From: Fibrobacterota bacterium
GTDB taxonomy: Bacteria; Fibrobacterota; Fibrobacteria; UBA5070
Length of the DNA stretch: 55,515 bases
Assembly: GCA_039798005.1 (NCBI GenBank)
Contig: JBDKGV010000001.1
Location: 1-55,515 of the forward strand
Reading direction: 5' to 3'
Notes under the pieces: model-generated
Told to the model about the DNA's origin: nothing
The model's input: only the letters and a program-made list of their open reading frames with translations
Databases searched by the model: none
In this document: in pieces, positions 2,340-53,682 of the stretch
How the letters are laid out: every line of letters starts with the position of its first letter
How positions within the stretch are numbered: position 1 is the stretch's first letter
Made by a program: the position numbers and the translations under genes

Positions 2340-4078
2340 TCCTCCTTGTCATCCCCATGGCGGTACATCCCCAACCGCTTCATCACGTCGCGAAGCACCT
2401 TGCGGTCGACATCGAGAATCGCCCCGGCTTGGGTCAGGTTGCCGCTGGCTCGCGCCAGCGCCTTTTCAATGGCAGACCGCTCTGCCGCTTCTCGCACCTG
2501 AGCCAACGTCTCGATCCCGCCGGAAGGAGTGCCGGCATCGAACCCGAAATGCTCCGGCTCCAACCGCACGCCACCCGCCTCCAGCAAGGCCCGCTGGATC
2601 CGGTTTTCAAGCTCCCGAACATTGCCGGGCCAAGCATGGCGCAACAACGCCTTTTCCGAGGCTCGTGAGAATCCGGACCAGGGAATGCCGAATTCCGTCG
2701 CTGCCCTTTGAGCAAAGAGCCTGGCCAGCGGAAGGACATCCTCGAACCGATCCCGAAGCGGTGGAATCCGCACGCTTGCGACATTGAGCCGGAACAGAAG
2801 ATCGCGACGGAAGTGGTTCTCCCCGACCATCTTGTCGAGGTCGCGATGGGTCGCCGCGACGATGCGCACATCCACCGTGCGCTCTTGACTTGAACCCACC
2901 CGGCGGATGGTCTTTTCCTGGAGTACCCGCAAAAGGGCCGCCTGCATCTGAGGCTCCAACTCACCGATCTCGTCAAGGAAGAGCGATCCCCCGGCCGCCG
3001 CCTCGAAAAGGCCCAGGCGCTCACCGGTCGCCCCGGTGAACGCGCCCTTTTCATGACCGAACAGCTCCGCTTCCATGAGAGAGGATGGAATCGCGGCGCA
3101 ATTGACGGCAAGGAATGGACCATTGCGACGAGGCGAGGAGCGATGCACCAGTCGCGCCAAAAGCTCCTTGCCCGTGCCGGTTTCACCAAGGATCAGGACG
3201 GGGACATTGGCGCTGGAAAAGCGACGCGCTTGTGCCACGACCGCCTGCATCTGGGAGGAGACGGCAAGGAGCCCCGCGGAATCGGAAGCCTGCAAGGACT
3301 CCAGAGCCATGCGATCTTCCATGTGACGCCGTGCGGCATCCAGCACCTTGCCAAGGCTGCGCGTCAGGCGATCGAATGCCTGCCGTTCCATCTCGCCAAA
3401 CGGCTCGCTCTTGCCGGTTCGGTGGAGATAGACACAAGTATCCGTCTTGCCTTGTGCATTCCTCAAAGGGGCGACGAGGATGGAGCGGATTCCGGCCTTC
3501 AGGATGGATGGCCCCGCCAGCGGAGCATCGGATGGTCCGGCATCGGCCCAAAGCACCGCCTTGCCGGACTCAAGGCAGGCTTTCACGGCACTGCGCGAGT
3601 GCTCAAGCACGACATCCGTGGGCCAACTTGCCAGAATGACACTGTCCTTGGCTGAAACCAGCAAACCGCCGCTGGCCCCCAAGTGCTGGGCTGCAAACTG
3701 CAGCAATTGTGGCAGCACGGCAGCAGGATCGGGCGCTTCGACCAAGGTTTCGACCGCCTGCAGCACGGGTTCGACCGAAAGGACGACGGTGGCGGGTCTG
3801 GGGCGCCGCAAGACCCAGCTCCTGCCGGAAATCTCCAGGCGACTGCCTTCCTCCAGCACCGCCCGACCACCGGCCAAAAGGACCTCACCGTCGACCCGCG
3901 AACCTGACTTGAGACCTTCTACGGAAACCTTGGTCCCCAGCACCAGAATCTGCATCACCTGTCCGGGAATGCCCGGTGCGCGCAAATCACAGCCGGCATC
4001 ACTGCCCAAGACCAGCACACGCTTGTTCAGTGGAAAATCCGGCTCGCCTTCCAGTGTCCATTCGATCGTCTCTGACAT
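2336..4078 (-). CDS. Sigma54-dependent transcriptional activator with FHA, GAF-like, AAA+ and Fis-type HTH domains
   Basis: Walker A VLILGETGTGKELLA. GAFTGA motif (HEKGAFTGA). ELFGHEKG and RVIAATHRDL-type segments. C-terminal HTH (NLTQAGAILDVDRKVL). The N-terminal ~90 aa is FHA-like (LVLGSDAGCDLRAPG...VDGEVL). No receiver domain is present. Confidence 0.85.
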   Translation of the reverse strand: MSETIEWTLEGEPDFPLNKRVLVLGSDAGCDLRAPGIPGQVMQILVLGTKVSVEGLKSGSRVDGEVLLAGGRAVLEEGSRLEISGRSWVLRRPRPATVVLSVEPVLQAVETLVEAPDPAAVLPQLLQFAAQHLGASGGLLVSAKDSVILASWPTDVVLEHSRSAVKACLESGKAVLWADAGPSDAPLAGPSILKAGIRSILVAPLRNAQGKTDTCVYLHRTGKSEPFGEMERQAFDRLTRSLGKVLDAARRHMEDRMALESLQASDSAGLLAVSSQMQAVVAQARRFSSANVPVLILGETGTGKELLARLVHRSSPRRNGPFLAVNCAAIPSSLMEAELFGHEKGAFTGATGERLGLFEAAAGGSLFLDEIGELEPQMQAALLRVLQEKTIRRVGSSQERTVDVRIVAATHRDLDKMVGENHFRRDLLFRLNVASVRIPPLRDRFEDVLPLARLFAQRAATEFGIPWSGFSRASEKALLRHAWPGNVRELENRIQRALLEAGGVRLEPEHFGFDAGTPSGGIETLAQVREAAERSAIEKALARASGNLTQAGAILDVDRKVLRDVMKRLGMYRHGDDKED

Positions 4079-5097: not shown

Positions 5098-7608
5098 ATG
5101 CTGACGAAGGAAAAGAGCATGACAGTCAAGCCAGGATCGACCTCCTCGCCGCTTTTGAACGACCTTGGCGAGAAGATCTTCCTGGATCGTTACGCTCTGA
5201 AGGACATGACCAAGAAGTCCCTTTCCGTCGGCGACACCGTGATCGTGTGCGTGAACCAGAAGAGCCGCCAGCGCGAGATCGGCAAGGTCACGCAACTCAA
5301 GGGCGAGCGCGTGGCGATCGAGTTGCGCGATGGCACCTCCACCGAGCAGGGCATCGAGGACGTGGACAAGCCTCTCGAACTGGTCCCTGAGCAGATGATG
5401 GAACGCGTGGCGCGTGGCATCGCCGACATCGAGAAGAGCCCAGAAAAGAAGGAAGAGTGGGAAGCTCGCTTCCGTTGGCTCCTGGACGAATGGCGCTTCG
5501 TGCCGGGTGGACGCATCCTGACCGCCGCTGGAACCGAGCAGGAACTGACCTTCTTCAACTGCTACGTGATTCCCTCGCCCGAGGATTCGCGCCGCGGCAT
5601 CGTCGACACCCTCTCCCAGATGATGGAGATCATGTCGCGCGGCGGCGGCGTGGGCATCAACCTGTCTTCCCTGCGCCCGCGCCACGCCTACGTGAAGGGC
5701 GTGAACGGACGCTCCTCGGGTTCGGTTTCCTGGGGTGGCCTCTATTCCTTCGTCACCGGCCTGATCGAGCAGGGCGGCAGTCGTCGCGGCGCCCTCATGC
5801 TGATCGTGAACGCTTGGCACCCGGACATCTTCGACTTCATCAACGCCAAGCGCGAAGCCGGCAAGATCACGAACGCCAACATCTCGGTGGGCGTGACCGA
5901 CGACTTCATGGAGGCCGTGGAGAAGGACGCCGACTGGCAACTGCGCTTCCCGGACGCTCAGCACCCTGACTACAAGGAAAAGTGGGACGGCAACCTCGCC
6001 GCGTGGGAGAAGGCTGGACTGCCGGTCATCGTGTACAAGACGGTGAAGGCACGCGACGTGTGGCAGAACATCATCGAGTCGGCTTGGTCCTCCGCCGAGC
6101 CGGGCGTGTTCTTCATCGACCGCGCCAACAAGGAATCGAACTCCCACTACTTCTCGCAACTGGTGTGCACCAACCCTTGTGGCGAGCAGCCCCTCCCCCC
6201 TTGGGGCATTTGCAACCTTGGCGCCATCAACTTGGCGCGATTCGTCACCCCCCAAGGCGACGTGGCATGGGACGACCTGCGCAAGTGCGTGCGCTACGGC
6301 GTGCGGTTCTTGGACAATGTCATCGACGCGACGCCGTACTTCTTCGACGAGAACCAGACCCAGCAGCAGAATGAGCGCCGCGTGGGCATGGGCATCATGG
6401 GCCTTGCCGAGATGCTGATTCGCTTGAAGATCCGATACGGATCCAACGAATCGATCACCTTCATCGAGAAGCTGGGCGAGTTCATCGCATCGGAAGCCTA
6501 TCTGGCCTCCACCGATTACGCCGCCGAAAAGGGATCGTTCCCCAAGCTCGACACCGAACTTCTGCTCCAGTCGGGCTTCATGTCCCGCATGAGCGACCGC
6601 GTCCGCAATGCCATCCGCGAGAAAGGCCTGCGCAACGTTACCCTGCTCACGGTCGCCCCCACCGGCACCACCGGCACCATGGTCAACACATCGACTGGTG
6701 TGGAGCCCTACTTCTCTTGGAGCTTCTTCCGCACCAGCCGTTTGGGCGTGCACGAGGAACGCGTGAACGTGGCCGACGAGTGGGATCGCGAGAATCCGGG
6801 CAAGCCCCTTCCTGACTACTTCGTGAGCGCCATGCAGCTCCTGCCCGAGGACCATGTGCGCGTGCAAGCCGCGCTTCAGAAGTGGATCGACTCGGCCATT
6901 TCCAAGACCTGCAACGTCCCCAACAGCTACACGGTCGAGCAGACCCGCGAGCTCTACGAGCTGATGTACAAGCTGGGCTGCAAGGGCGGCACGATCTACC
7001 GCGACGGAAGCCGCAACGAGCAGGTGCTCAACCTCAAGAAGGAAGAGAAGAAGGAGGAGGTCAAGGAAGTGAAGGCCGCTCCGCTGCCCGCTTGGATGAG
7101 CCTTCCCAAGATGCGCCCCCGCCCGCCCCTGTCCCACGGCATGACCGTCAAGAAGGAGAGCCCCTTGGGCTCGGTCTTCGTGACCGTCAACGACGACGAG
7201 CAAGGCGAACCGCTGGAGATCTTCATCACCTCCGGCAAGGCGGGATCGGACATCACCGGCATGGCCGAGGCCATGGGTCGCTTGGCGTCACTGGTGCTGC
7301 GCGTGGCATCCCCCATCTCCCCGGACGAGCGTCTGCGCCTGATCGCAAGCCAACTGGCAGGCATCGGCGGCGCCCGCTCCATGGGCTTTGGCAAGACGCG
7401 CGTGCGCTCCATGCCGGACGCCGTGGGCCTTGCTCTGGAAGATGTCCTCAAGGGCGCTGAGGCCGTGGCGGCGGAAGTCGCTCAGGCACCGGAATTCGAT
7501 CTGCAGCCGGCCGTCCACGCCGACCTGTGCCCCGAATGCGGCGAAGCCACCTTCATTCGCGAGGAAGGCTGTCACCACTGCACATCCTGCGGTCACAGCC
7601 AGTGCTGA
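5098..7608 (+). CDS. nrdJ: Adenosylcobalamin-dependent (class II) ribonucleotide reductase
   Basis: Motifs seen: FNCYV, active-site NPCGEQPLPPWGICNLG, TVAPTGTT, and a C-terminal CxxC...CxxC tail (CPECGE...CHHCTSCG). The start is set at the ATG at 5098 (MLTKEK). The listed ORF start at 4954 overlaps a leader hairpin. Confidence 0.9.
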   Translation: MLTKEKSMTVKPGSTSSPLLNDLGEKIFLDRYALKDMTKKSLSVGDTVIVCVNQKSRQREIGKVTQLKGERVAIELRDGTSTEQGIEDVDKPLELVPEQMMERVARGIADIEKSPEKKEEWEARFRWLLDEWRFVPGGRILTAAGTEQELTFFNCYVIPSPEDSRRGIVDTLSQMMEIMSRGGGVGINLSSLRPRHAYVKGVNGRSSGSVSWGGLYSFVTGLIEQGGSRRGALMLIVNAWHPDIFDFINAKREAGKITNANISVGVTDDFMEAVEKDADWQLRFPDAQHPDYKEKWDGNLAAWEKAGLPVIVYKTVKARDVWQNIIESAWSSAEPGVFFIDRANKESNSHYFSQLVCTNPCGEQPLPPWGICNLGAINLARFVTPQGDVAWDDLRKCVRYGVRFLDNVIDATPYFFDENQTQQQNERRVGMGIMGLAEMLIRLKIRYGSNESITFIEKLGEFIASEAYLASTDYAAEKGSFPKLDTELLLQSGFMSRMSDRVRNAIREKGLRNVTLLTVAPTGTTGTMVNTSTGVEPYFSWSFFRTSRLGVHEERVNVADEWDRENPGKPLPDYFVSAMQLLPEDHVRVQAALQKWIDSAISKTCNVPNSYTVEQTRELYELMYKLGCKGGTIYRDGSRNEQVLNLKKEEKKEEVKEVKAAPLPAWMSLPKMRPRPPLSHGMTVKKESPLGSVFVTVNDDEQGEPLEIFITSGKAGSDITGMAEAMGRLASLVLRVASPISPDERLRLIASQLAGIGGARSMGFGKTRVRSMPDAVGLALEDVLKGAEAVAAEVAQAPEFDLQPAVHADLCPECGEATFIREEGCHHCTSCGHSQC

Positions 7609-24660: not shown

Positions 24661-24773
24661 TTTTGGGCGCCTTCGCCCTCCTGCAGGCTACCCTCCGGTC
24701 GGTGCGCCGCATCCTGTATCCTGATCGATGCCATTGCGGCGCACCCGCTGCGCGGCCTTCCGTCCGGCTGGCG
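24661..24773 (+). repeat. GC-rich intergenic repeat, family R2, copy c
   Basis: Shares ttttgggcgcc, gccctcct, a ggtgc...gcacc hairpin and tccgtccggctggcgc with the copies at 32239-32348 and 43040-43122. Confidence 0.6.
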
Positions 24774-24793
24774 CATCTTCGCGTGCCCCTGAG

Positions 24794-32238: not shown

Positions 32239-32348
32239 TTTTGGGCGCCGCCCCGGCAAAGACCGTGGCCGCCCTCCTCCGGGCTCGCCGGGTCCGGCTC
32301 GGTGCTGCGCACCCACCGGTTCGGTGGCCCTGCGTCCGGCTGGCGCGC
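32239..32348 (+). repeat. GC-rich intergenic repeat, family R2, copy a
   Basis: ttttgggcgcc…ggccgccctcctccgggctcgc…ggtgctgcgcacc…ccctgcgtccggctggcgcg is homologous to copies b and c. Confidence 0.6.
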
Positions 32349-32509: not shown

Positions 32510-34636
32510 ATGAGTCTTGTCACGCGTTCCGCCGTGGCTGCAGGTTTGCTTGCCGCCACGGTACCGCAGGCGCAATTGGTGGTTTCCCACCAGTCGGCGA
32601 CCGGCAGCAGCAACAGCAATTTGATCCGCCCTTATCTCAAGATCGAGAATCAAGGAAGCGAAACCGTCGATCTGGCCAAGACGACGCTGGACTACCTGAT
32701 CAACGACGATGCCGCCCCGACCGCACTGGTGGCCGACTGCTGGTACAACTCGGCAGGCTCCTGCAGCGATGTGACTGCTGAGATCTCGAACATTCCGGCT
32801 CAGAAAGAGGGCGTGCGGCAGGCCAATGTGCGGGTGCGCTTGGGCTTCCTGCGTGGTCAGTTGGCCGCCGGGCAGAGCGTCATCCTCCAGTGGGGTCTGC
32901 ACGAGCAGAGCTGGCAGCACATCTTCAACGAGCAGGACGACTGGTCCTTCGTCTCGACCAACGGCCAGTGGACGGTGGACACCTACGTGCCCGTGGGCCA
33001 GCCCGGCAAGGAGCCTTCCGCCCCTGCCCTGGTCTGGAAAGGCCTGACCGACCAACTGCCTGACATCGCCTCCTACAAGGTTGGCGATGTGGTCCGCGAC
33101 CGCAACACCGGCTCGACCTATGTCTTGAACGACGGAATCTGGCAATTGCTGGCGGAATCCGGCAAGGACGGCGCCGTTGGCCCCATCGGACCCCAAGGAC
33201 CTGTCGGTGCAACCGGTGCCGCCGGTCAAGATGGCTCAGTCGGTCCTCAAGGACCCAAGGGTGATGTTGGCGCAACTGGACCCGCCGGTAAGGACGGTGC
33301 CGTCGGTGCTATCGGTCCCCAAGGACCTGTCGGTGCAACCGGTGCCGCCGGTCAAGACGGTGCAATTGGACCCGTCGGTCCTCAAGGGTCAATCGGCGCA
33401 ACCGGTGCAGCTGGTCAAGATGGTGCAATTGGCCCCGTTGGACCGCAAGGACCCATCGGTGCAACTGGTGCGGCCGGTAAGGACGGAGCTGTCGGTGCTC
33501 AAGGACCCAAGGGCGAGATCGGTCTGACCGGTGCCGCTGGCAAGGACGGTGCCGTCGGTCCCCAAGGACCCAAGGGTGATATCGGTCTGACCGGTGCCGC
33601 TGGCAAGGACGGTGCCGTCGGTCCCCAAGGACCCAAGGGTGATATCGGCCTGACCGGTGCCGCTGGCAAGGACGGTGCTGTTGGTGCGACGGGCGCCCAA
33701 GGACCCATCGGTCTGACTGGACCCGCTGGTAAGGATGGTGCTGTCGGTGCAATCGGACCGCAAGGCGCAAAGGGTGCTGTTGGTGCGACTGGCCCTCAAG
33801 GCATTGCCGGTGCAACTGGTACTGCAGGTAAGGATGGAGCGGTCGGTGCTATTGGCGCTCAAGGACCCGCCGGTGTACCGGGTGTTGCTGGACCCGCTGG
33901 TCCCCAAGGTCCGAAGGGTGATATCGGTGCAACCGGACCCCAAGGACCTGCCGGTGTGCCGGGTGTTGCTGGACCCGTTGGCCCTCAGGGTGCCAAGGGC
34001 GATGTGGGACCTGCTGGCCCGACTGCCAATGTGACGGCACTTCAGGCACAGGTCACTGCGTTGCAGGCACAACTGGCAGCAGTTGCGAGCGGGAACTTCG
34101 TGTATGACTCCCGCGATGGCAAGGTCTACAAGACCGTCGTGATCGGAACCCAAACTTGGATGGCTGAGAATCTGAACTATGCTGGGAGCGGGACCTGCTA
34201 TGGTGGGGATGCGGCGAATTGCGCCGCCTATGGACGCTTGTACACTTGGGCAGAAGTGATGGGTGTTGCCTCCACTTACAACACGACGAGATTGAATCCC
34301 ACCCCACCCTCAAAGGGCATTTGCCCAACGGGCTGGCATGTCCCCGTCAATTCTGAATGGTACACCCTTAACAGTGCAACAGGTTTCGATGCTGCAGCCC
34401 TCAAGTCGACCAGTGGTTGGCAAGTCAACGGAAACAACAGCTCAGGCTTCAATCTTCTGGCTGGCGGCTTTTCTGGCGGCTATCAAGGAGATATGGCGTT
34501 ACTGTGGGGAGCTTCAGAATACTCTGACAATGGCGTCTACCGTATCGCGCTACGCTCCTCGTGGAGTTCACTTGAATCCGGAGGGGGAGTGGTGGGGAAA
34601 ACCGCTGGCATGTCCTTACGCTGCGTGAAGAACTGA
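32510..34636 (+). CDS. Secreted CBM3-like / collagen triple-helix repeat / coiled-coil / FISUMP (TIGR02145-like) domain protein
   Basis: Signal peptide MSLVTRSAVAAGLLAATVPQAQ. The CBM3-like segment NSNLIRPYLKIENQGSETVDLAKTTLDYLIN…DDWSF…GKEP is collinear with CipA CBM3. About 95 uninterrupted Gly-X-Y triplets span 33161-34021. They are followed by VTALQAQVTALQAQLAAV. The C-terminus is FISUMP-like: YKTVVIGTQTWMAENLNY…GRLYTW…CPTGWHVP…LRCVKN. Confidence 0.85.
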   Translation: MSLVTRSAVAAGLLAATVPQAQLVVSHQSATGSSNSNLIRPYLKIENQGSETVDLAKTTLDYLINDDAAPTALVADCWYNSAGSCSDVTAEISNIPAQKEGVRQANVRVRLGFLRGQLAAGQSVILQWGLHEQSWQHIFNEQDDWSFVSTNGQWTVDTYVPVGQPGKEPSAPALVWKGLTDQLPDIASYKVGDVVRDRNTGSTYVLNDGIWQLLAESGKDGAVGPIGPQGPVGATGAAGQDGSVGPQGPKGDVGATGPAGKDGAVGAIGPQGPVGATGAAGQDGAIGPVGPQGSIGATGAAGQDGAIGPVGPQGPIGATGAAGKDGAVGAQGPKGEIGLTGAAGKDGAVGPQGPKGDIGLTGAAGKDGAVGPQGPKGDIGLTGAAGKDGAVGATGAQGPIGLTGPAGKDGAVGAIGPQGAKGAVGATGPQGIAGATGTAGKDGAVGAIGAQGPAGVPGVAGPAGPQGPKGDIGATGPQGPAGVPGVAGPVGPQGAKGDVGPAGPTANVTALQAQVTALQAQLAAVASGNFVYDSRDGKVYKTVVIGTQTWMAENLNYAGSGTCYGGDAANCAAYGRLYTWAEVMGVASTYNTTRLNPTPPSKGICPTGWHVPVNSEWYTLNSATGFDAAALKSTSGWQVNGNNSSGFNLLAGGFSGGYQGDMALLWGASEYSDNGVYRIALRSSWSSLESGGGVVGKTAGMSLRCVKN
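33521..33700 (+). repeat. 63-bp tandem repeat (~2.8 copies) inside the collagen-like region
   Basis: The unit ggtctgaccggtgccgctggcaaggacggtgccgtcggtccccaaggacccaagggtgatatc starts at 33521, 33584 and 33647. It encodes GLTGAAGKDGAVGPQGPKGDI. Confidence 0.85.
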
Positions 34637-39363: not shown

Positions 39364-40494
39364 TCAGGAACGAAGGAGCGACTCGCAAAAGTCCTGCTGA
39401 CGGCGCGCCAGGGCATTCCACTTGAAGTTCCCGGCCCAAAGACGGGCGGCAAGGGACATCTCCTTGCGACGCGACTCGTCGCGCAGCAGTCCCAAGAGGG
39501 CTTGGGCGGTGTCGGCGGCGGCGCTTTCCTCCCTGTTCTTCACCAGGATTCCGGTCTTTCCGTCGCACACCGAATCCAGAAATCCATCCGCCGTGGTGGC
39601 CACCACCGGCAGCCCTGTGGCTTGCGCCTCGACACCCGCGATACACCAACCCTCGAAGCGGCTTGGCGAACAGAAGACCCAGCCCCGCGCAAGCAACGCG
39701 GCTTTTTGCGCATCCGAAACGTTGGTGTGCAGCTCCGTACTCCCGGCCGGAAGCGATTGCAGGCGCGCCCGGATCTCGGTGATCGTCTCGGGGCTTCCGC
39801 GACCGGCCAGGACCAGTCGAGCCGTCGGCAATTCCCGATGAACCGTGGCAAAGGCGGCGAACAGCCGATCCAACCCTTTCATGGCGATGTCCAGTCGCCC
39901 CACGAAAACCACGGTCGGACAGTCGGCAAGCATCGGTTCGACGGAAAGCAGGCTCTCCTCGATCCCGTTGGGGATGAATTCCACCCGCGCATCGGGGTTG
40001 ACCTCGCGGATGCGGGCCGCCACGGCATGGTTGACCGTGACGTAGTTGCGCCCTTTGGACAGGATCTGTCGTTCGTGCCAGTCCGCGACCAGCCCGAGCG
40101 GACCGTATTTGCGCCACGAATTCGACAGCCCGACGATGTGGTGCACCACCAGAAGCGTGGTTTCCTGGTGGGCAAGCAAGGCTGGCACCGGTGCGAAGAT
40201 CGAAGGCGATCCGGACACCACCGTATCGCGGCGATCCAAGGCGGTCAGCGCGCGCTGCGCCTGCGCCGAATATCCGAATCGGGAGATCCAGCGATTGGCC
40301 TTGCGCCAACCAAGCCACCGCGTCTTGGGCGCATCCTGCCCTTTGCCGTCACACTCGGGGAATGCCCCGCTCCAGAGCTCAACCTCCCAAGGCGCCGTGA
40401 AACGCTTGGCCATCTCCCAGTCGCGCAGGGCGCCTCCCCCGGCAAGCCAAGGGTTCCAGGGGGAATCGTAACTGAGATGGACGAGCCTTGGCAT
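39364..40494 (-). CDS. Glycosyltransferase family 4 (GT-B fold)
   Basis: Start at MPRLVHLSYDSPWNPWLAGGG. C-terminal EGWCIAGVEAQATGLPVVAT…DG.TG is the E-x7-E region. The upstream 112 codons of the listed ORF are a translation of repeat R1-A. Confidence 0.8.
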   Translation of the reverse strand: MPRLVHLSYDSPWNPWLAGGGALRDWEMAKRFTAPWEVELWSGAFPECDGKGQDAPKTRWLGWRKANRWISRFGYSAQAQRALTALDRRDTVVSGSPSIFAPVPALLAHQETTLLVVHHIVGLSNSWRKYGPLGLVADWHERQILSKGRNYVTVNHAVAARIREVNPDARVEFIPNGIEESLLSVEPMLADCPTVVFVGRLDIAMKGLDRLFAAFATVHRELPTARLVLAGRGSPETITEIRARLQSLPAGSTELHTNVSDAQKAALLARGWVFCSPSRFEGWCIAGVEAQATGLPVVATTADGFLDSVCDGKTGILVKNREESAAADTAQALLGLLRDESRRKEMSLAARLWAGNFKWNALARRQQDFCESLLRS

Positions 40495-40564
40495 AGCGGC
40501 TGAATGTAGCTCCACATGACTTTTGCACGGCGTGCGGCTGTCATGGGATTGAACTACGTTCTGC

Positions 40565-40768
40565 CGTTGTTCTGGACCTCCGGCCCAGACCCGGCCAAAG
40601 GGGCTTTCGTGCCCCTTTGGAAACCACGACCAGGGGTTACACCCCTTGGAACCCAGCAAAAGGATCGCAGGCAGTGAGCGGCAGCGGCCAGGAGATCTTA
40701 CGAAACCCGCTAGCGAAGGCGAGGCGCCTTCGACGCAGGACCCAATGACCAAAGTGCGATCCGCGACG
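40565..40768 (+). repeat. Structured intergenic repeat, family R1, copy A (~200 nt; possible ncRNA or MITE)
   Basis: Collinear with the reverse complement of 45826-46033 at high identity. It carries three hairpins: tctggacc/ggcccaga, ccaaagggg/cccctttgg and ccagggg/cccc(t)tgg. A gcgaaggcg/cgccttcg(a)c hairpin follows. Confidence 0.75.
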
Positions 40769-40888
40769 GCGTAACGGCCGTGATCAGCAGCCCGGTGCCG
40801 CGCAGCGGCAGGCGCCCTTGCCTTTTGCAATTCAATTCATATATTGCATATAGGTTTAATTGATAGATCCAGCCACGGAGCAAGATCC

Positions 40889-41953
40889 ATGAGCATTTCC
40901 ATCCAGTCGGTGAACAAGACCTTTGGCGCTTTCAAGGCGCTGGACGATGTGTCGCTTGAGATCCCCGATGGCGAACTGGTTGCGCTGCTGGGCCCTTCGG
41001 GCGGCGGCAAGACCACGCTCCTGCGCAGCATCGCGGGGCTCGAGGTGCCGGACTCCGGCAAGATCCTCTTCGGCGGCCAGGACGCGACCCTCCAGAAGCC
41101 GCAAGACCGCGGCGTGGGCTTCGTGTTCCAGCACTACGCGCTTTTCCGGCACATGACCGTTGCGGAAAACATCGCCTTCGGGCTGCGCGTGAAGCCTCGC
41201 AAGGAACGCCCCTCCGACGAGGCGATCAAGGCATCGGTCGACGAACTTCTCAAACTCATCCAGCTCGATTGGATCGCTGATCGCTACCCCGACGAACTTT
41301 CGGGCGGCCAGCGTCAGCGCGTGGCCCTGGCCCGTGCCTTGGCGCCCAAGCCCACCTTCCTGCTGCTGGACGAGCCCTTCGGCGCGCTCGACACCAAGGT
41401 GCGCAAGGAACTGCGCCGCTGGCTGCGCCAGCTCCACGAGGAGCTCAAGATGACCTCGATCTTCGTGACCCACGACCAGGAGGAGGCGCTGGAGCTGGCC
41501 GACCGCGTGGTGGTGATGATGAAAGGCAAGGTCGCGCAGAGCGGCACCCCCGACGAGGTCTACGACCATCCCGTCTCGGCCGACGTCTACCAGTTCCTGG
41601 GCGATGTGAACCTGTTCCACGGCCGCGTCTCGGACGGTTCGTTCCTGCACCTGCCGACCTCCCCGGAGGCTGGTCTGCCCGCCGAGGGAGCCACCGCCTT
41701 CGTGCGTCCACACGAGCTGGACGTGGAGCGCTTCGCCACCTCGGACGCCTCGATTCCGGCCACCCTCCTGCACTCCTACTCGTTGGGCTCGAAGGTGCGC
41801 CTGGAACTGCGCCGTCAGGACACCGAGGAGTTCCTTGAGGCCGAGCTGACCCGCGATCGCTACCGCAACCTGGGTCTGGCCGCCGGCGACAAGGTCTTCG
41901 TGACCCTCCAGCAACTGCGCGTGTTCCGCACCGGCGAAGAAGTGACGATCTGA
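40889..41953 (+). CDS. cysA: Sulfate/thiosulfate-type ABC transporter ATP-binding protein
   Basis: Walker [10 protein letters not shown], signature [15 protein letters not shown], Walker [12 protein letters not shown], and a C-terminal TOBE-like regulatory domain. It is followed by a sulfate-binding protein gene. Confidence 0.8.
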
Positions 41954-43005
41954 TGCCGTACATGAACGACCCCGTTCGTCCTGAGGCTCTCGAAGGATGG
42001 ACGGGAGGCGGCCTTCGCCGACTCCTCGCGCTGGTCCTCGTGTCCGCCACCCTCTCCCAAGCACGCATCGTCGAGATCCTCAACCTTTCCTTCGACCCGA
42101 CTCGCAGGCTCTACCAAGATATCGGGAAAGGCTTCGCCGCCCAGTGGAAGGCCAAGACCGGCGAGACCGTGAAGATCCTGCAGTCGCATGGCGGCTCGGG
42201 GAAGCAAGCGCGCTCGGTGATCGATGGCATCCCCGCCGACGTGGTGACGCTTGCCTTGGGCTATGACATCGACGCCATCGCGACCAAGGGAAAGCTCCTG
42301 GATGCGAATTGGCAGAACCGCCTGCCCAACCGCTCCACGCCGTTCCAGAGCACCATCGTCTTCCTGGTGCGCAAGGGGAATCCCAAGCACATCCGGGATT
42401 GGTCAGATCTTGTCAAACCCGACGTTGCGGTGATCACCCCCAACCCCAAGACCTCCGGCGGGGCCCGCTGGAACCACTTGGCCGCGTGGGCATGGGCGAT
42501 CCGGCAGCCGGGCGGCAATGAGGCCAGCGCCACGGCGTTTGTGAAGAACTTGTACGCCCATGTCCCCATCTTGGATGCGGGCGCGCGCGGCGCCACCATG
42601 ACCTTCGTGCAGCGGGCGATGGGCGATGCGCTCATCACCTGGGAGAACGAGGCGATCATGGCCCGCGAGAAGCTGGGTCGCGACAAGTTCGAGATCATCT
42701 ATCCGTCCATCTCGATCCTGGCCGAACCTCCCGTGGCCGTGGTGGACAAGGTCGTGAAGCGGCGCCATACCGAGGCGGTCTCCAAGGCCTATGTTGAATA
42801 CCTCTACACCCCGGCTGCCCAGGAGATCGCCGCCCGCTACGGCTTCCGCGCCCTGGACACCGCCGTGGCCCGCCGCCACGCCGCGCAGTTCCCGAACCTC
42901 CAGCTCGTGCGCCTCACGGAACTGGGCAAGGACTGGCAGGAACTCCAGAAGAAGCACTTCGAGGACGGCGGCCTGTTCGACAAGATCTACGCCGTGAAGA
43001 AGTAG
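41953..43005 (+). CDS. Sulfate ABC transporter periplasmic substrate-binding protein (Sbp/CysP family)
   Basis: ILNLSFDPTRRLYQDIGKGF…SHGGSGKQARSVIDGIPADVVTLAL..D…TPNPKTSGGARW are typical Sbp/CysP motifs. There is a 1-nt overlap with the cysA stop. Confidence 0.8.
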   Translation: MPYMNDPVRPEALEGWTGGGLRRLLALVLVSATLSQARIVEILNLSFDPTRRLYQDIGKGFAAQWKAKTGETVKILQSHGGSGKQARSVIDGIPADVVTLALGYDIDAIATKGKLLDANWQNRLPNRSTPFQSTIVFLVRKGNPKHIRDWSDLVKPDVAVITPNPKTSGGARWNHLAAWAWAIRQPGGNEASATAFVKNLYAHVPILDAGARGATMTFVQRAMGDALITWENEAIMAREKLGRDKFEIIYPSISILAEPPVAVVDKVVKRRHTEAVSKAYVEYLYTPAAQEIAARYGFRALDTAVARRHAAQFPNLQLVRLTELGKDWQELQKKHFEDGGLFDKIYAVKK

Positions 43006-43039
43006 GGCGCCTCCCCCGCTTTCCTCCACAATGCGTGCA

Positions 43040-43122
43040 ACGCGGGGCCGCCCTCCTCCGGGCTCGCGCAGTCGCGCTCAGTGCTGCGCACTGCCTACGG
43101 CACCCTCCGTCCGGCTGGCGCG
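43040..43122 (+). repeat. GC-rich intergenic repeat, family R2, copy b
   Basis: ggccgccctcctccgggctcgc…agtgctgcgcact…ccctccgtccggctggcgcg. It lies between convergent genes. Confidence 0.6.
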
Positions 43123-43138
43123 GTACAGCTAGGCTGGA

Positions 43139-45427
43139 TTAGAAGGGGGCTCGTTCGATCTGAATCCTGTCCAGCAGCAGGGCGCCTCGGAAGGAGCTGG
43201 AGAGGCCAGCGACAGGATTCATCTCCTGGGCAAGCGGCTCAGAGGACGGTTGCAGGACGGACCAGCGGAACTTGTTGATGCTTGACTTGGCGAAGGCGGC
43301 ATCTCGGTTGACGTTATGCCGCCAAGTGATATCGCTGTTGGAATGAGAGATTGATCCCCACCATTTGCTCAAGCCAAGGGCGTTCATGGAGCTCGATCTC
43401 CCGTTCCCGTAGCTGTCGACCTGGACCCAGCTCGGGGTTTTGGGGCTGAAGTTGGTCGAGTCGGCGATCTTGAGGATGGCCTCCACGGGATACCAGAAGG
43501 CGGAGAGAGTATAGGAATACTGCCTCCAGACGGTGTCCAGTGGAACGATCACGCGCTGGAATGCATCGAGGTATCCCGCATTCGTGTTGTCCAGGTTGGA
43601 ATGGGCGTATTCAAACATCATGGGGACGCTGGTGGCCGTGTTGCCGGGAGCGGGCTCGAAACGAGCCCAGAAGTTCATGCGGATGGCCTTGCTCATGAAG
43701 CTCCCCGGCACGAGTGCATAGATGCCCGCGTAGCCGGGGCCGTTGAAAGGATCAGCCAAGCCTGCCATGCTCGAGGCATGGAGGTCGAAGTCCATGCGGG
43801 CGACGTGCGTGCCCAGGAAGGCGGGATCCCCGATCCGGGTCGGTGTCGGTAGCTGGAAGTGGCCCTTGGTGATGCTGCATCCCGGGGTTCCGGTGGCGTT
43901 CGTGCCAGTGGCGCAACCAAAGGGTTGGAACGGCTTTCCCCAGAGGGTGACAGCTTTGCCGGACTCGAAATCAGCGAGAGGGATCGTGTCCCCAAGGGGG
44001 ATGTAGGAACGACTGGATAGAGGAGAAGAAATCCAGCCCTGCCGGACGGCCATAGCCCGAATCATTGCGCTTCGGCCCAAGCCGATCGGCCCTGTATAGA
44101 CCTGCGTGGTTCCACTTGGAGGGTTGGTCGGAATGGTGGAGTCTGTGGTGTAAAGGATCGAGCTTCCCGGAACCGTGTTGGTCACGCTTACCAAGACGGC
44201 TCCATCGTAGATGCCGGAGTCGGGGCTGAAGCTCAGAGCGGGAAGCGCCAAGGTGAAATGACCGGAGTCGATGGCGCTTGGTGCCCAACCGTCACGGCAA
44301 ACGATGGCTTTGATCTTTTGGCTTGAATCGACCTTCAAGGGCGTGACGTAGCGAAGGCTTGTGCAGGTAGGATCCATGCCGTCGTTTGCGTAGTGGATCG
44401 AACCTCCGGGAGTGGAGGTCGACAGGCTCAGGTCCTGCGAAGAGGTGTAGAGACCGCTGCGAGTGGAAAATATCGCCGCTGTTGCGGCAAATCCGATTTG
44501 GAGAGAATTGATCTGGCTAGGCAGGTATCCGGGAGCGCAGCCGATGGCCTTGACCTGAACGGAGGAATCGATGTTGAGAGCGCCAGAATAGAGGCGGTCC
44601 TGGCAGGAGGGATCGGAACCGTCCAAGGCATAGTGAATCGTTGAACCGGGAGTCTTCCCATGGATTTCAAGGGTCTTGAAATCCGGAAAATTTCCATCGT
44701 TCAAGGAAAACGTCGGAGTCAGGGTCGTTGGCAAGATGGGCGCCGTTTGACGTGAAATCCTGACCGTATCCGACGAACTGTTGCCGGCCTTGTCGGAGGC
44801 GCAAAGGACTGCCAGGATCGTTTCCCCTGAAGCGATCGTGCCACGATGGACATAGCGCCCATCGACGTTGGCGCTCACCTGGCCATTCACGTCCACCCGC
44901 GCAAGCGAGTCGTCAACCACGATCCAATCGATCTGGAAGGTGGAGTCATCGAACCCAAGAGAGGTATCGCGCGTCAAAGCGAAGATCTTAGGACCTGATG
45001 TATCCTGTGGCAAAAGCAGAACGCGGATACTTGCGATGAGAGGAACGGCACTGTTCCGCGAGGAACCGTCCAAGGTCCCGGTCCAGATCCTGCTCGTGCT
45101 GCCATTGTTCCGGATTTTGATTCCATCCAAGGTCAGGTGGAATGCATTTCCTTGAGGCAAGGCAAGCCTGAGTGAATCAAACCGAGTCACCGAAAGGGTG
45201 CTGTCGAACCGGACAGAATCCGGAGACATGGTGGAAAAATGAATGTGAATGGAGTCTGTCGCTGGGAGCACATCTCCATCAGACAAGTGCAATACAGGAT
45301 GGAGATAAGCGCTGTTGGTGGTTTGGGACTGAACGGCCGAATGAGGCGTCTCCGTGTCGTCGCATGAGATCAGGACTAGCGAGACAAGCAGAGCGAAAAG
45401 GGGAAATTTCATAAACTCGACCTTCAT
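43139..45427 (-). CDS. Large surface lipoprotein with three chitobiase/hexosaminidase-C-like (CHB_HEX_C_1-type) repeats and a C-terminal CBM-like domain
   Basis: MKVEFMKFPLFALLVSLVLISCDD has a lipobox. Three repeats are present: IHYALDGSDPSC…VKAIGCAPGYLPS, IHYANDGMDPTC…IKAIVCRDGWAPS and ILYTTDSTIP…IRAMAVRQGWISS. The C-terminal ~280 aa has beta-sandwich-like composition. Confidence 0.65.
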   Translation of the reverse strand: MKVEFMKFPLFALLVSLVLISCDDTETPHSAVQSQTTNSAYLHPVLHLSDGDVLPATDSIHIHFSTMSPDSVRFDSTLSVTRFDSLRLALPQGNAFHLTLDGIKIRNNGSTSRIWTGTLDGSSRNSAVPLIASIRVLLLPQDTSGPKIFALTRDTSLGFDDSTFQIDWIVVDDSLARVDVNGQVSANVDGRYVHRGTIASGETILAVLCASDKAGNSSSDTVRISRQTAPILPTTLTPTFSLNDGNFPDFKTLEIHGKTPGSTIHYALDGSDPSCQDRLYSGALNIDSSVQVKAIGCAPGYLPSQINSLQIGFAATAAIFSTRSGLYTSSQDLSLSTSTPGGSIHYANDGMDPTCTSLRYVTPLKVDSSQKIKAIVCRDGWAPSAIDSGHFTLALPALSFSPDSGIYDGAVLVSVTNTVPGSSILYTTDSTIPTNPPSGTTQVYTGPIGLGRSAMIRAMAVRQGWISSPLSSRSYIPLGDTIPLADFESGKAVTLWGKPFQPFGCATGTNATGTPGCSITKGHFQLPTPTRIGDPAFLGTHVARMDFDLHASSMAGLADPFNGPGYAGIYALVPGSFMSKAIRMNFWARFEPAPGNTATSVPMMFEYAHSNLDNTNAGYLDAFQRVIVPLDTVWRQYSYTLSAFWYPVEAILKIADSTNFSPKTPSWVQVDSYGNGRSSSMNALGLSKWWGSISHSNSDITWRHNVNRDAAFAKSSINKFRWSVLQPSSEPLAQEMNPVAGLSSSFRGALLLDRIQIERAPF

Positions 45428-45565
45428 GGTTGCCGGATGAAGCGCAAAGCTCAGGGCCTCACTCGCCTCCGTGTCACTGCGCCTGAATATATATCCGAGT
45501 ATAGCGGCCTGGTCGCCAGCAGAGCACTCCTATCGCGGCATTCGATTTTTTGCACTTCGTGCCTA

Positions 45566-45660
45566 TTGCTCTGGACCCTCCCGGTCCAGACCAGGGCCAA
45601 AGGGATGCCGCCATCCCTTTGGAAACCACCGCCAGCCGTTCCGCCGGCTGGACCCACGGA
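45566..45660 (+). repeat. Structured intergenic repeat, family R1, copy B (short variant)
   Basis: It has the same three hairpins as copies A and C, with compensatory changes: tctggacc/ggtccaga, ccaaaggga/tccctttgg and ccagccg/cggctgg. It then jumps to the ggacccacgg segment and lacks the central ~95 nt. Confidence 0.65.
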
Positions 45661-45825
45661 TTTCCGCAGCCACTTCGCGAGTCTTGCCACCACTTCGATC
45701 AGCAACCTTGCGACTCAACCGGTCACAATGCACCCCGCGCGATCAGGATCGCACACGGGGACCCCAATTCCGGGGAATGCCAAGATCTCGGGCTTCGCCC
45801 TCGTTTGTAACGTAATGCAGTTGCT

Positions 45826-46033
45826 CGTTGCGACTTCCCACTTCGGCCCGTGGGTCCCGCGTCGAAGGCGCATCGCCTTCGCTAGCGGGTTTCGTAAGCT
45901 CTCCTGACCGCTGCGGTCCACTGCCAGCGATCCTTTTGCTGGGTTCCAAGGGGTGGAACCCCTGGCGGTGGTTTCCAAAGGGCCACCGCAGGCCCTTTGG
46001 CCCGGGTCTGGGCCGGGAAGGCCCAGAACAACG
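45826..46033 (-). repeat. Structured intergenic repeat, family R1, copy C (inverted relative to A and B)
   Basis: Its reverse complement aligns end to end with 40565-40768. Differences fall mainly in hairpin loops or as paired stem changes. Confidence 0.75.
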
Positions 46034-46136
46034 CGCATAAATAGATCTGCATCTGAAAACACTGATGGGCAGGAGAGGATGAGCCCACAACGCACAGACT
46101 CGTGCAGTCCGCAAATTGATACCTTTCCCCCCTTCC

Positions 46137-52858: not shown

Positions 52859-52926
52859 TCTTCTATTGGTCAACCTGAGGGCATTCAGTCCTCAACCCTT
52901 TCAAAACTGTTCTTGGAGTAAATACC

Positions 52927-53124
52927 ATGCGCAAGCTTCTCGCCCTCGCCCTCGTCGCCACCTTCTCCGCTCTCGTTGCTTGCAACAAGGCCGAAGAGAC
53001 CAAGCCCGCCGTGGACAGCACCGTTGCAGTGGACACCGCTAAGAAGGACACCGCTGCTCCCGCCGCTGACACCACCAAGAAGGACACCGCAGCTGCCAAG
53101 AAGGACACCGCTGCCAAGAAGTAA
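52927..53124 (+). CDS. Small (65 aa) Lys/Thr/Asp/Ala-rich lipoprotein, paralogue 1
   Basis: MRKLLALALVATFSALVAC has a lipobox. The mature part contains KKDTAA x3 repeats. A GGAG RBS is present and a strong terminator follows. Confidence 0.7.
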   Translation: MRKLLALALVATFSALVACNKAEETKPAVDSTVAVDTAKKDTAAPAADTTKKDTAAAKKDTAAKK

Positions 53125-53159
53125 TCCTACGGCTTCCATCAGGAAGCTGTTCGAATTCA

Positions 53160-53192
53160 CCCTGCATCACTTCGGTGAGGCAGGGTTTTTTG
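53160..53192 (+). terminator. Rho-independent terminator with a UUCG tetraloop
   Basis: ccctgcatcac-ttcg-gtgaggcaggg followed by tttttt. Confidence 0.85.
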
Positions 53193-53294
53193 TTTTCTGG
53201 TCTTGTGGGCATTCCACCCGATCCTCGGGCTTTCCACCCGTATTTCCAAACGCCGAAATGACCCGATAAGGCCTGTGGGGTCGCATTGGCCAAC

Positions 53295-53309: not shown

Positions 53310-53372
53310 GCACTCAAGGGATGAAACGGGGGCAATCGCCTCCCTCAGAATTTGATCTCCGGAGTACCTATC

Positions 53373-53579
53373 ATGCGCAAGCTTCTCGCCCTCGCCCTCG
53401 TCGCCACCTTCTCCGCTCTCGTTGCTTGCAACAAGGCCGAAGAAGCCAAGCCCGCCGTGGATTCCACCGTCGCCGTGGACTCCACTGTGAAGGTTGACAC
53501 CATCAAGGCCGACACCGCCAAGGTCGACACCATCAAGAAGGTCGAAACCAAGACCACCGAGACCAAGACCACCAAGTAA
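53373..53579 (+). CDS. Small (68 aa) Lys/Thr/Asp-rich lipoprotein, paralogue 2
   Basis: The first 71 nt are identical to those of the gene at 52927 (same signal peptide and lipobox). The mature part is VDTIKADTAKVDTIKKVETKTTETKTTK. Confidence 0.7.
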   Translation: MRKLLALALVATFSALVACNKAEEAKPAVDSTVAVDSTVKVDTIKADTAKVDTIKKVETKTTETKTTK

Positions 53580-53619
53580 TCCGACCATCCTTCCGTTCAC
53601 GGAGGGATGTCTGAATTCG

Positions 53620-53652
53620 CCCTGCAGCACTTCGGTGCGGCAGGGTTTTTCT
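53620..53652 (+). terminator. Rho-independent terminator with a UUCG tetraloop (paralogous to 53160-53192)
   Basis: ccctgcagcac-ttcg-gtgcggcaggg followed by tttttc. Confidence 0.85.
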
Positions 53653-53682
53653 TTTCCCCCAAGTTCTCCTACCTTTGCAGAG

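Follow-up and report, generated by a model that had tools for sequence, protein, structure and literature searches.

The stretch of DNA analysed here (the window) comprises 55,515 nucleotides of contig JBDKGV010000001.1 (assembly GCA_039798005.1) from an uncultured Fibrobacterota bacterium, and carries three copies, A, B and C, of a folded intergenic repeat. Among named sequences, the best matches to RpoN (71% identity) without exception belong to Fibrobacterota metagenome-assembled genomes. Copy A lies in the spacer between the GT4 and cysA genes, while copies B and C share the spacer between a gene specifying a 762 amino acid protein and tmk. By blastn, copy A (40565–40759) matches copy C (46033–45836) with 87.4% identity over 198 nt (E-value 1e-65), and copy B matches copy C with 80% identity over 80 nt (45566–45645; E-value 6e-16). 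A repeat search of the window returned inverted-repeat arms at 40590–40759 and 45836–46005 (170 nt, 87% complementary) and, for B and C, at 45566–45655 and 45942–46031 (90 nt, 78% complementary). The 15-mer CCCTTTGGAAACCAC, which is common to the copies, occurs three times in the window against 0.06 expected. A covariance model of the family gives exactly three matches in the window, namely A, B and C, at the positions where an earlier, sequence-only reading of this DNA had placed them. That reading had also regarded the long open reading frames (ORFs) over the copies (39364–40830, in its first 112 codons, and 45828–46040) as mere translations of the repeat. Since the gene calls of the Joint Genome Institute (JGI) begin GT4 at 40494 and leave both copy-bearing spacers without any called gene, these ORFs are indeed artefacts.

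Each of the three copies folds into the three hairpins described previously, with z-scores of -3.1, -4.3 and -4.7, and inspection of the sequence revealed the substitutions which had been quoted. In the order A, B and C, the key pair of hairpin 1 is A.C, A-T and G-C, and the closing pair of hairpin 2 is G-C, A-T and C-G; hairpin 3 is built upon GGG/CCC or GCC/GGC. The complete end module measures approximately 90–130 nt and consists of a small hairpin box (H0), hairpin 1 (H1), a linker, hairpin 2 (H2), a spacer, a pseudoknot stretch and hairpin 3 (H3). H0, which was missed in the earlier reading, lies outside hairpin 1 and is part of the element; it is a 4-bp hairpin, GCAC-nnn-GTGC, and a compensated variant, GAGC-TGC-GCTC, keeps its pairing. 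The linker of 5–6 nt mirrors the 3' strand of hairpin 1, and H2 is followed by a spacer of 2–3 nt and then by 5–6 nt which pair with the 3' part of the H2 loop. In copy A an extra 35 nt or so separates the H0 box from hairpin 1, and a second box, which usually adjoins hairpin 1, is deleted; the first box is the same in the orthologous spacer of a related contig, L141. The H0 box of copy C is degenerate. By eye, the TTTTGCAC...GCGTGC box was judged not to be a sigma-54 promoter: its spacing falls 2 nt short, and it forms the covarying 4-bp hairpin.

Twenty-one distinct copies were segmented by hand, each being checked against its source, to give 31 pairs and 597 alignment cells. On the strand used in the sequence-only reading 93.1% of the cells pair (556 Watson-Crick, 25 A.C, 0 G.U and 16 other), with 19 of the 31 pairs changing on both sides and none (0/31) on one side only. 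The 25 A.C cells represent roughly 9–10 separate changes, and every one of them is G.U on the reverse strand, where 97.3% of the cells pair (H3 and H2, 100%; H1, 98.7%; pseudoknot, 88.9%). The covariation score of the reverse strand is 0.359 compared with 0.133 in shuffles, 0 of 500 shuffles reaching it, and slid controls collapsed to only 28–59% paired (27–59% with both strands counted). Selection on single-strand secondary structure, as originally claimed, is thereby strongly supported, but the strand has to be exchanged: the one under structural selection is the reverse, which runs from the inside of the unit to its end, that is, the minus strand for A and B and the plus strand for C. Fold energies alone do not pick the strand; the reverse strand is always the more stable (for the copy A module, -49.8 kcal/mol on the minus strand versus -42.2 on the plus strand), and its shuffles are likewise.

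A fourth pairing was found between the H2 loop and the bases after GGAAAC, creating an H-type pseudoknot. Its paired segments include TCGTG/CACGA, GCGGTG/CACCGC (the version in copy C), TGGCGG/CCGCCA, TGGTGG/CCACCA and TGGAGG/CCTCCA; considered alone, it is 88.9% paired against 74.5% when shuffled, and its covariation score is 0.468 (shuffles, 0.209). Compensatory changes maintain every one of the four helices. The statement that loops differ freely between copies must therefore be narrowed, since not all loops are free: the 3' part of the H2 loop is bound to its downstream partner. From general pseudoknot stereochemistry, the strand used previously would need a loop of 2–4 nt to cross the minor groove of a 7–9-bp stem. 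The reverse strand would form a classical H-type knot with a stem 1 of 5–7 bp, a loop 1 of UU or UUU, a stem 2 of 7–9 bp containing A-U pairs, and a loop 3 of 3–5 nt.

Could such a pattern arise with no structural selection, the GC-rich palindromes of a decaying repeat being kept perfect by template-switch repair at the DNA level? Hairpin-rich repeats are prone to template-switch correction. Copy B has lost pseudoknot complementarity, its H2 loop (ATGCCGCCAT) being mismatched to a partner which the B-type copies in L123/L135 and in L125 (CCTGCGGTGG) still match, while its hairpin 2 (45595–45620) is now a longer perfect palindrome, CCAAAGGGATG-ccgc-CATCCCTTTGG; this may represent palindrome correction in a decaying copy. 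As a general explanation, however, we find template switching decidedly improbable: the pseudoknot pairs do not constitute a simple palindrome, yet they covary, and the 25-to-0 strand asymmetry of the mismatches is unexpected from double-strand repair.

An exact-pattern scan of metagenome contigs yielded 18 stretches with the module, within which nhmmer and the covariance model then found diverged copies. In addition to the three in the window, more than 25 copies were located in related contigs, no ORF being called over the copies; over 194 nt, copy A shows 93% identity to the A-type copies of L126 and L128. None of the loci from the scan contains a homolog of any of eight window proteins, from which it follows that the copies sit in unrelated contexts. 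To place genes in the loci, a gene-finding model of codon usage was trained on the JGI calls; it recovers the window's genes. All 35 of the 35 nhmmer matches proved to be intergenic, the copy-bearing spacers being divergent, tandem or convergent without preference, and there is no orientation bias, the hairpin-1 end facing a gene start seven times and a gene stop eight times.

The family also differs between close relatives at the same sites. Three states of the GT4–cysA spacer were observed: the window holds an A-type copy, L141 (Sbp 87%) a member of another subfamily, which has a tail of type T_long and an inverted box, and L143 (Sbp 81%) no element; the cysA promoter block is conserved in all three alike. 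In L148 (Sbp 88%) tmk begins 56 nt after sbp, where the window has approximately 3.1 kb, indicating that the window's segment is an insertion. It contains one copy of a second, unrelated repeat (43043–43121), the 762 amino acid gene (43139–45427, minus strand) and the B+C unit. Merely 60–182 nt lie upstream of tmk in L143, L144 and L146. [quoted passage not shown] The product of the 762 amino acid gene is a surface or secreted-type protein with Fn3_assoc and CHB_HEX_C domains.

These comparisons bear upon the idea of a cis-regulatory, riboswitch-like leader of cysA/sbp, tmk, GT4 or the 762 amino acid gene. All three window copies are situated in divergent promoter regions, 28–130 nt from a start codon and on the favoured strand, as such a leader would be. 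Elsewhere, however, the module stands beside unrelated genes and downstream of stop codons, L143 retains the cysA promoter block without the element, and the tmk spacers of four relatives (56–182 nt) are devoid of it, leaving a leader extremely improbable. A 5' untranslated region, suggested by the fact that all window copies face a start codon, was rejected on the orientation counts in the other loci and the empty sites.

The same counts, together with the covariation, have to be considered for a family of independently transcribed, trans-acting small RNAs in which a 3' scaffold (H3, pseudoknot, H1, H0) would be conserved while the 5' tails would vary. Such RNAs would account for a covarying pseudoknot whose geometry fits the reverse strand only (loop 1 of UU or UUU; stem 2 of 7–9 bp with A-U pairs), for the tolerance of G.U on one strand only, and for variable tails beside a conserved scaffold. 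We consider them quite unlikely nonetheless, as no promoter of the sigma-70-type consensus and no intrinsic terminator were predicted in or next to the copies, Rfam offers no matching family, close relatives are without copies, and inverted pairing, tandem duplication and truncated copies are the habits of a repeat. The structured non-coding RNA which had been offered as one identity of the element is likewise not supported as a dedicated gene: covarying structure on a defined strand is present, whereas a promoter or terminator of its own, or a constant position relative to genes, is not (orientation 7 versus 8). The Rfam comparison proposed in the sequence-only reading was carried out alongside the covariance model, and no family was matched at the gathering score in the window or in 38 loci; the highest-scoring match below it was that of copy C to RF01999, discussed below. 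A weak CPEB3/HDV match (18 bits) was rejected since the order of helices lacks P3 and P4.

The arrangement of the modules provides further evidence of a mobile origin. The modules lie for the most part in convergent inverted pairs. Such pairs were found seven times, including B+C, and divergent pairs not at all; the remaining convergent arrangements are in L122 (twice), L124, L126, L128 and L130. The pairs bracket units of 380–650 bp, non-coding and present in multiple copies as are MITEs (about 50–600 bp), and their arms of 31–90 nt are 74–94% complementary, in the manner of terminal inverted repeats. That B and C face each other, as had been noticed, is confirmed by the inverted repeat, and they represent one composite unit; copy A is a solo half-unit. 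Beyond the module every copy continues into a tail, of which there are at least three alternative types (T_A, T_B and T_long) recombining with the same module (Table 1). Copy B is consequently not an A-type copy lacking the central 95 nt or so, as was previously proposed, but a different subfamily: its next ~150 nt (to ~45805) form another conserved tail, which accompanies this module in other genomes too. The T_A tail of copy A contains the hairpin CGAAGGCG-agg-CGCCTTCG, and its homology to the other T_A copies stops near 40760. The junction of a T_A tail with a T_B fragment seen in B-C is also present in L135 (5836–6304).

Table 1. Positions of the repeat and its parts in the window, and distribution of the alternative tails
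Feature	Position	Strand	Basis or remark
Copy A, hairpin box H0 (GCAC-GGC-GTGC)	40525–40535	-	Box common to B and metagenome copies
Copy A, end module	40571–40649	- (best-folding strand)	Covariance-model match, 65.5 bits
Copy A, H1	40571–40589		Plus-strand coordinates
Copy A, linker	40590–40594		Plus-strand coordinates
Copy A, H2	40595–40620		Plus-strand coordinates
Copy A, H3	40630–40649		Plus-strand coordinates
Copy A, pseudoknot strands	40607–40612 with 40624–40629		Plus-strand coordinates
Copy A, tail of type T_A	40650–40768	-	Alignment of A, C, L126, L128 and L135; blastn
Copy B, hairpin box H0 (GCAC-TTC-GTGC)	45552–45562	-	
Copy B, end module (H1, H2, H3)	45570–45651	-	Covariance-model match, 61.7 bits
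Copy B, tail of type T_B, a separate conserved module	45652–45805	-	blastn: L135, 88% over 237 nt; also L125, L122, L130, L124
Copy C, T_A tail, adjoining the end of the B tail	45836–45945	+	blastn, alignment
Copy C, end module	45946–46027	+ (best-folding strand)	Covariance-model match, 84.8 bits
B+C composite unit	45552–46040		Two inverted end modules (90-nt arms, 78% complementary) around T_B and T_A tails
Segment of ~3.1 kb absent from L148	43034–46110		L148 gene order and spacer
T_A tail, carriers			A, C, L126, L128, L135
T_B tail, carriers			B, L135, L125, L122, L130, L124
T_long tail, carriers			L122, L124, L137, L130, L128, L141

Two loci show more elaborate arrangements. In L122 (4380–4905) two long-type elements are arranged head to tail with a period of 405 nt and 94% identity, which suggests that the repeats also amplify locally by tandem duplication. 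In L135 (2847–6304) approximately 2.9 kb of gene-bearing DNA, which includes a gene for a Fib_succ_major protein, stands between two modules, one of B type and one of C type, each accompanied by its tail, and a second T_B fragment is found at 5836–5907; the inverted modules seem to enclose cargo.

The same locus raises the question of whether the copies are degenerate group II intron fragments, that is, pieces of domain I. L135 contains a true match to the Rfam family RF01999 (group-II-D1D4-2) at 3167–3292 on the minus strand (69.5 bits), exactly where the partner arm of the B-type element would be expected, and copy C scores 26.2 bits against this family, the two having in common adjacent hairpins followed by AAACCAC. 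The L135 match stands alone between the T_B tail and the Fib_succ_major gene, and the 10.6-kb locus is without a domain V/VI match. The copy C score does not reach the gathering threshold of 36, RF01999 matches neither copy A nor copy B, and neither domain V/VI (RF00029) nor a reverse transcriptase was found in any locus. An intron origin appears highly improbable.

Based upon this evidence we propose, with a probability of about 0.6, that A, B and C are non-coding, dispersed, modular and non-autonomous intergenic repeats of an uncultured Fibrobacterota lineage, resembling both MITEs and the doublets of repetitive extragenic palindromic (REP) sequences known as REPINs. The MITE/REP-like mosaic element of the sequence-only reading is the one supported, given the dispersed non-syntenic intergenic sites, modular tails, inverted pairs and presence or absence between close relatives; its strand, its view of copy B and its account of the loops are corrected, and the pseudoknot and the inverted-pair organisation are added. 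Mechanistically, the folded end module, either as a single-stranded DNA intermediate or as RNA, would be recognised by an enzyme encoded elsewhere which copies or moves the element. The former option would be akin to HUH enzymes acting on the hairpins of REP or IS200-type elements; RNA is the alternative. Only those lineages of copies which keep the fold would leave descendants, and the conservation of the helices across subfamilies differing by 10–25% would be the expected outcome of selection among source copies. The hairpin-1 G.U common to seven copies could have been inherited from a source that was then still active. Effects upon GT4, cysA, tmk or the 762 amino acid gene, for example through stable structure in read-through transcripts, would be a by-product.

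Several observations weigh against this proposal. Neither the window nor the neighbourhood of the copies in approximately 250 kb of loci revealed a transposase, RAYT (REP-associated tyrosine transposase), TnpB or reverse transcriptase, and no consistent direct repeats, such as a target-site duplication would leave, occur at the approximate ends of the elements. The two arms of one unit often belong to different subfamilies, which is unusual for the inverted repeats of a MITE. Approximately 80 kb of L139, L140, L143, L144, L146 and L147 contain no copy detectable with the covariance model, the family being sparse there. As the alignment was hand-fitted to the structure and many of its copies share a common descent, fewer independent events took place than the cell counts would suggest. 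Template switching, by correcting palindromes, can moreover mimic compensatory change in a hairpin, though less easily in a pseudoknot.

Other searches for an origin or a partner were equally negative. All-against-all BLAST of the flanking ORFs returned as recurrent neighbours only histidine kinases, response regulators and ABC transporters. A translated query of the element, intended to find copies called as spurious ORFs, had no match among 5.8 billion proteins, and a similarity search of a plasmid collection gave none either. A 7-bp candidate duplication in L128, GTCTTCG, was rejected as internal to the element, since the same sequence follows the L141 copy.

The main rival to a mobile repeat is a role for the host, in the stability of its transcripts. 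Elements of the REP, ERIC and Correia families act on transcripts in such a manner (PMC10969869), and a host-domesticated REP-like element, with host selection on each copy, might protect or process mRNA ends through its co-transcribed reverse-strand module, or organise DNA. In its favour, z-scores of -2 to -5 show a stable fold, selection on structure acts on one strand, and any transcript reading through an inverted pair, from whichever direction, has its distal arm in the favourable polarity. Nevertheless the copies show no preference among divergent, tandem and convergent spacers or between the two orientations, they are absent at the same genes in close relatives which retain the conserved promoter blocks, and no terminator-like U tracts were found in or next to them. 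Domestication, although the strongest of the competing explanations, is on balance unlikely.

Among known elements, a family of dispersed repeats such as we propose may be compared with the bacterial MITEs, which include Correia/NEMIS of Neisseria, ERIC/IRU of enterobacteria and BOX/RUP/SPRITE of the pneumococcus (PMC10969869). It shares with them small size, lack of coding capacity, multiple intergenic copies, inverted terminal parts and stable stem-loops in transcripts, as well as a modular build like boxA-B-C and variable presence between relatives (PMC10969869). It differs in that its arms are approximately 100 nt long, each folding into three to four helices with a pseudoknot; a single unit frequently combines arms of different subfamilies; the element is GC-rich rather than AT-rich; and neither a target-site duplication nor a parent insertion sequence was found in the loci surveyed.

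REPs and their assemblies, bacterial interspersed mosaic elements and REPINs, are extragenic imperfect palindromes, often in inverted doublets, for which the hairpin matters on one strand, which are not known to make a target-site duplication and which form mosaic combinations. The Fibrobacterota family has intergenic palindromes, inverted doublets, a one-strand hairpin and mosaics in common with them. REPs themselves are single hairpins of 20–40 nt with a conserved 5' tetranucleotide, and there is usually a RAYT (Y1 HUH) gene flanked by REPs. The module is not such a palindrome, since it measures 90–130 nt and comprises 3–4 helices together with a pseudoknot; a RAYT gene was likewise not encountered in the window or the loci.

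The BoxC/PIT/TMECO sequences are intrastrand-triplex repeats of E. coli and other bacteria which are abundant, intergenic and of unassigned function (Holder et al. 2015, PMC4666352). They too have a GC-rich hairpin followed by a strand mirroring one of its arms, a feature seen in the window (GGCCCAGACCCGG) and, strongly, in the look-alikes from other phyla described below. In the window copies this is a 13-nt mirror palindrome (40582–40594, 45581–45593 and 46006–46018) with only 3–4 potential triples, the linker being the reverse, not the reverse complement, of the 3' strand of hairpin 1. The mirror position covaries between the Fibrobacterota subfamilies (G,G versus C,C; in L125, an A-T pair with T), and linker and covariation together resemble the signature of a BoxC/TMECO-type intrastrand triplex. 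BoxC, however, consists of a single hairpin and a third strand, ordered C-G-G; a second and a third hairpin and a pseudoknot are all lacking from the one E. coli copy inspected, and the mirror part in the Fibrobacterota family is only 3–4 bases where a triplex calls for three blocks of at least 6–8 nt.

The omega RNAs or reRNAs of TnpB and IscB, and HEARO, are pseudoknotted multi-hairpin scaffolds at the outward-facing end of a mobile element, with a strand reading into the flank, and in these respects the end module is like them. The differences are that no tnpB or iscB is nearby, there is no HEARO or IS605-orfB Rfam match, and both ends of the Fibrobacterota unit carry the scaffold; the likeness to such guide RNA scaffolds would appear to be a resemblance only. 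With RF01999 the similarity is restricted to two adjacent hairpins followed by (C/G)AAACCAC and the sub-threshold score of copy C, intron core, domain V/VI and reverse transcriptase being found in neither the window nor the loci.

A loose pattern scan of genome contigs with CCAAAGGGN{8,12}CCCTTTGGAAACC gave, among the matches listed, look-alike loci (L001–L119) in Clostridia, Rhodobacteraceae, Alteromonas, Syntrophobacter and other deltaproteobacteria, Chloroflexota, Actinocatenispora and others. Their plan is a GC hairpin, a linker mirroring its 3' strand, CCAAAGGG-loop-CCCTTTGG and then AAACC. They carry CCAAAGGG-loop-CCCTTTGGAAACC in several copies per metagenome-assembled genome, intergenically and in both orientations. 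Their hairpin 2 was selected by the scan pattern; the other features were not. The pairing of loop to downstream bases often covaries (CCGA/TCGG versus GCGA/TCGC, CACG/CGTG, TCAG/CTGA), with a mean complementarity of 3.39 against 2.88 +/- 0.07 when permuted. The mirror arms of 5–8 nt have a mean of 2.98 against 2.34 +/- 0.07 permuted; examples from L009, L019, L021, L027, L030, L041, L096 and L113 include GTCTCCCC..CCCCTCTG and TCCTCTCTC gcg CTCTCTCCT. A.C mismatches outnumber G.T by 21 to 6, the same strand bias as in the Fibrobacterota family. The Fibrobacterota model gives full-length matches of 26–46 bits at places outside those selected by the pattern, and hairpin 2 occurs there in compensated forms, for instance CUUAAGGG/CCCUUAAG. 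No Rfam family match and no associated protein were found for L001–L119, among the matches listed. The hairpin-plus-mirror part of the look-alikes corresponds to the BoxC/PIT/TMECO intrastrand-triplex repeats (PMC4666352).

The plan shared across phyla starts with a GC hairpin and its mirror linker; then come CCWAAGGG-loop-CCCTTWGG, the loop of which forms a pseudoknot with downstream bases, an AAWCC spacer and one more hairpin. Lying at an element end which reads outward, such a fold could be an RNA scaffold or a single-stranded DNA signal for mobilisation. That the module is one lineage of a cross-phylum structured class, its fold serving a widespread and unannotated mobilisation system, is a tentative and rather doubtful proposition. 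Perhaps such a system might be RNA-guided, by analogy with the omega RNAs of TnpB and IscB. The resemblance may stem from common descent, shared machinery or convergence.

The window contains other repeats. A second intergenic repeat, unrelated to the first, occurs at 24732–24774, 32264–32346 and 43043–43121 (49 nt at 86% and 43 nt at 65–77%) and ends in CCTCCGTCCGGCTGGCGC; one of its copies lies between the convergent sbp and 762 amino acid genes. The gene at 32579–34636 codes for a collagen-like Gly-X-Y array with a 63-nt period (repeats at 33161–33982) together with CBM_3 and Fib_succ_major domains (JGI Pfam). At 52915–53195 and 53361–53655 there is a tandem duplication (133 nt, 89%) of a gene for a 65–68 amino acid protein with lysine- and aspartate-rich repeats, each copy being followed by a terminator-like hairpin with a T run.

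No description of intergenic repeats in Fibrobacterota was found in the literature, and a literal sequence search of the literature matched only primers. The family seems to be an unusually structured element of a known type, MITE/REP-like, which is new for Fibrobacterota. Intergenic repeats of uncultured phyla are almost unstudied, and this one is an unusually clean case of a mobile-looking repeat having elaborate folded ends rather than simple inverted repeats. Its strand-specific signature implies that selection sees a single-stranded form, which points to a propagation mechanism based upon single-stranded DNA or RNA. In practical terms, the elements create spurious long ORFs, would mislead searches for riboswitches, and mark strain-variable spots at which genes for surface proteins are gained and lost. 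If the resemblance across phyla reflects shared ancestry or machinery, it would define a widespread and unannotated class of elements.

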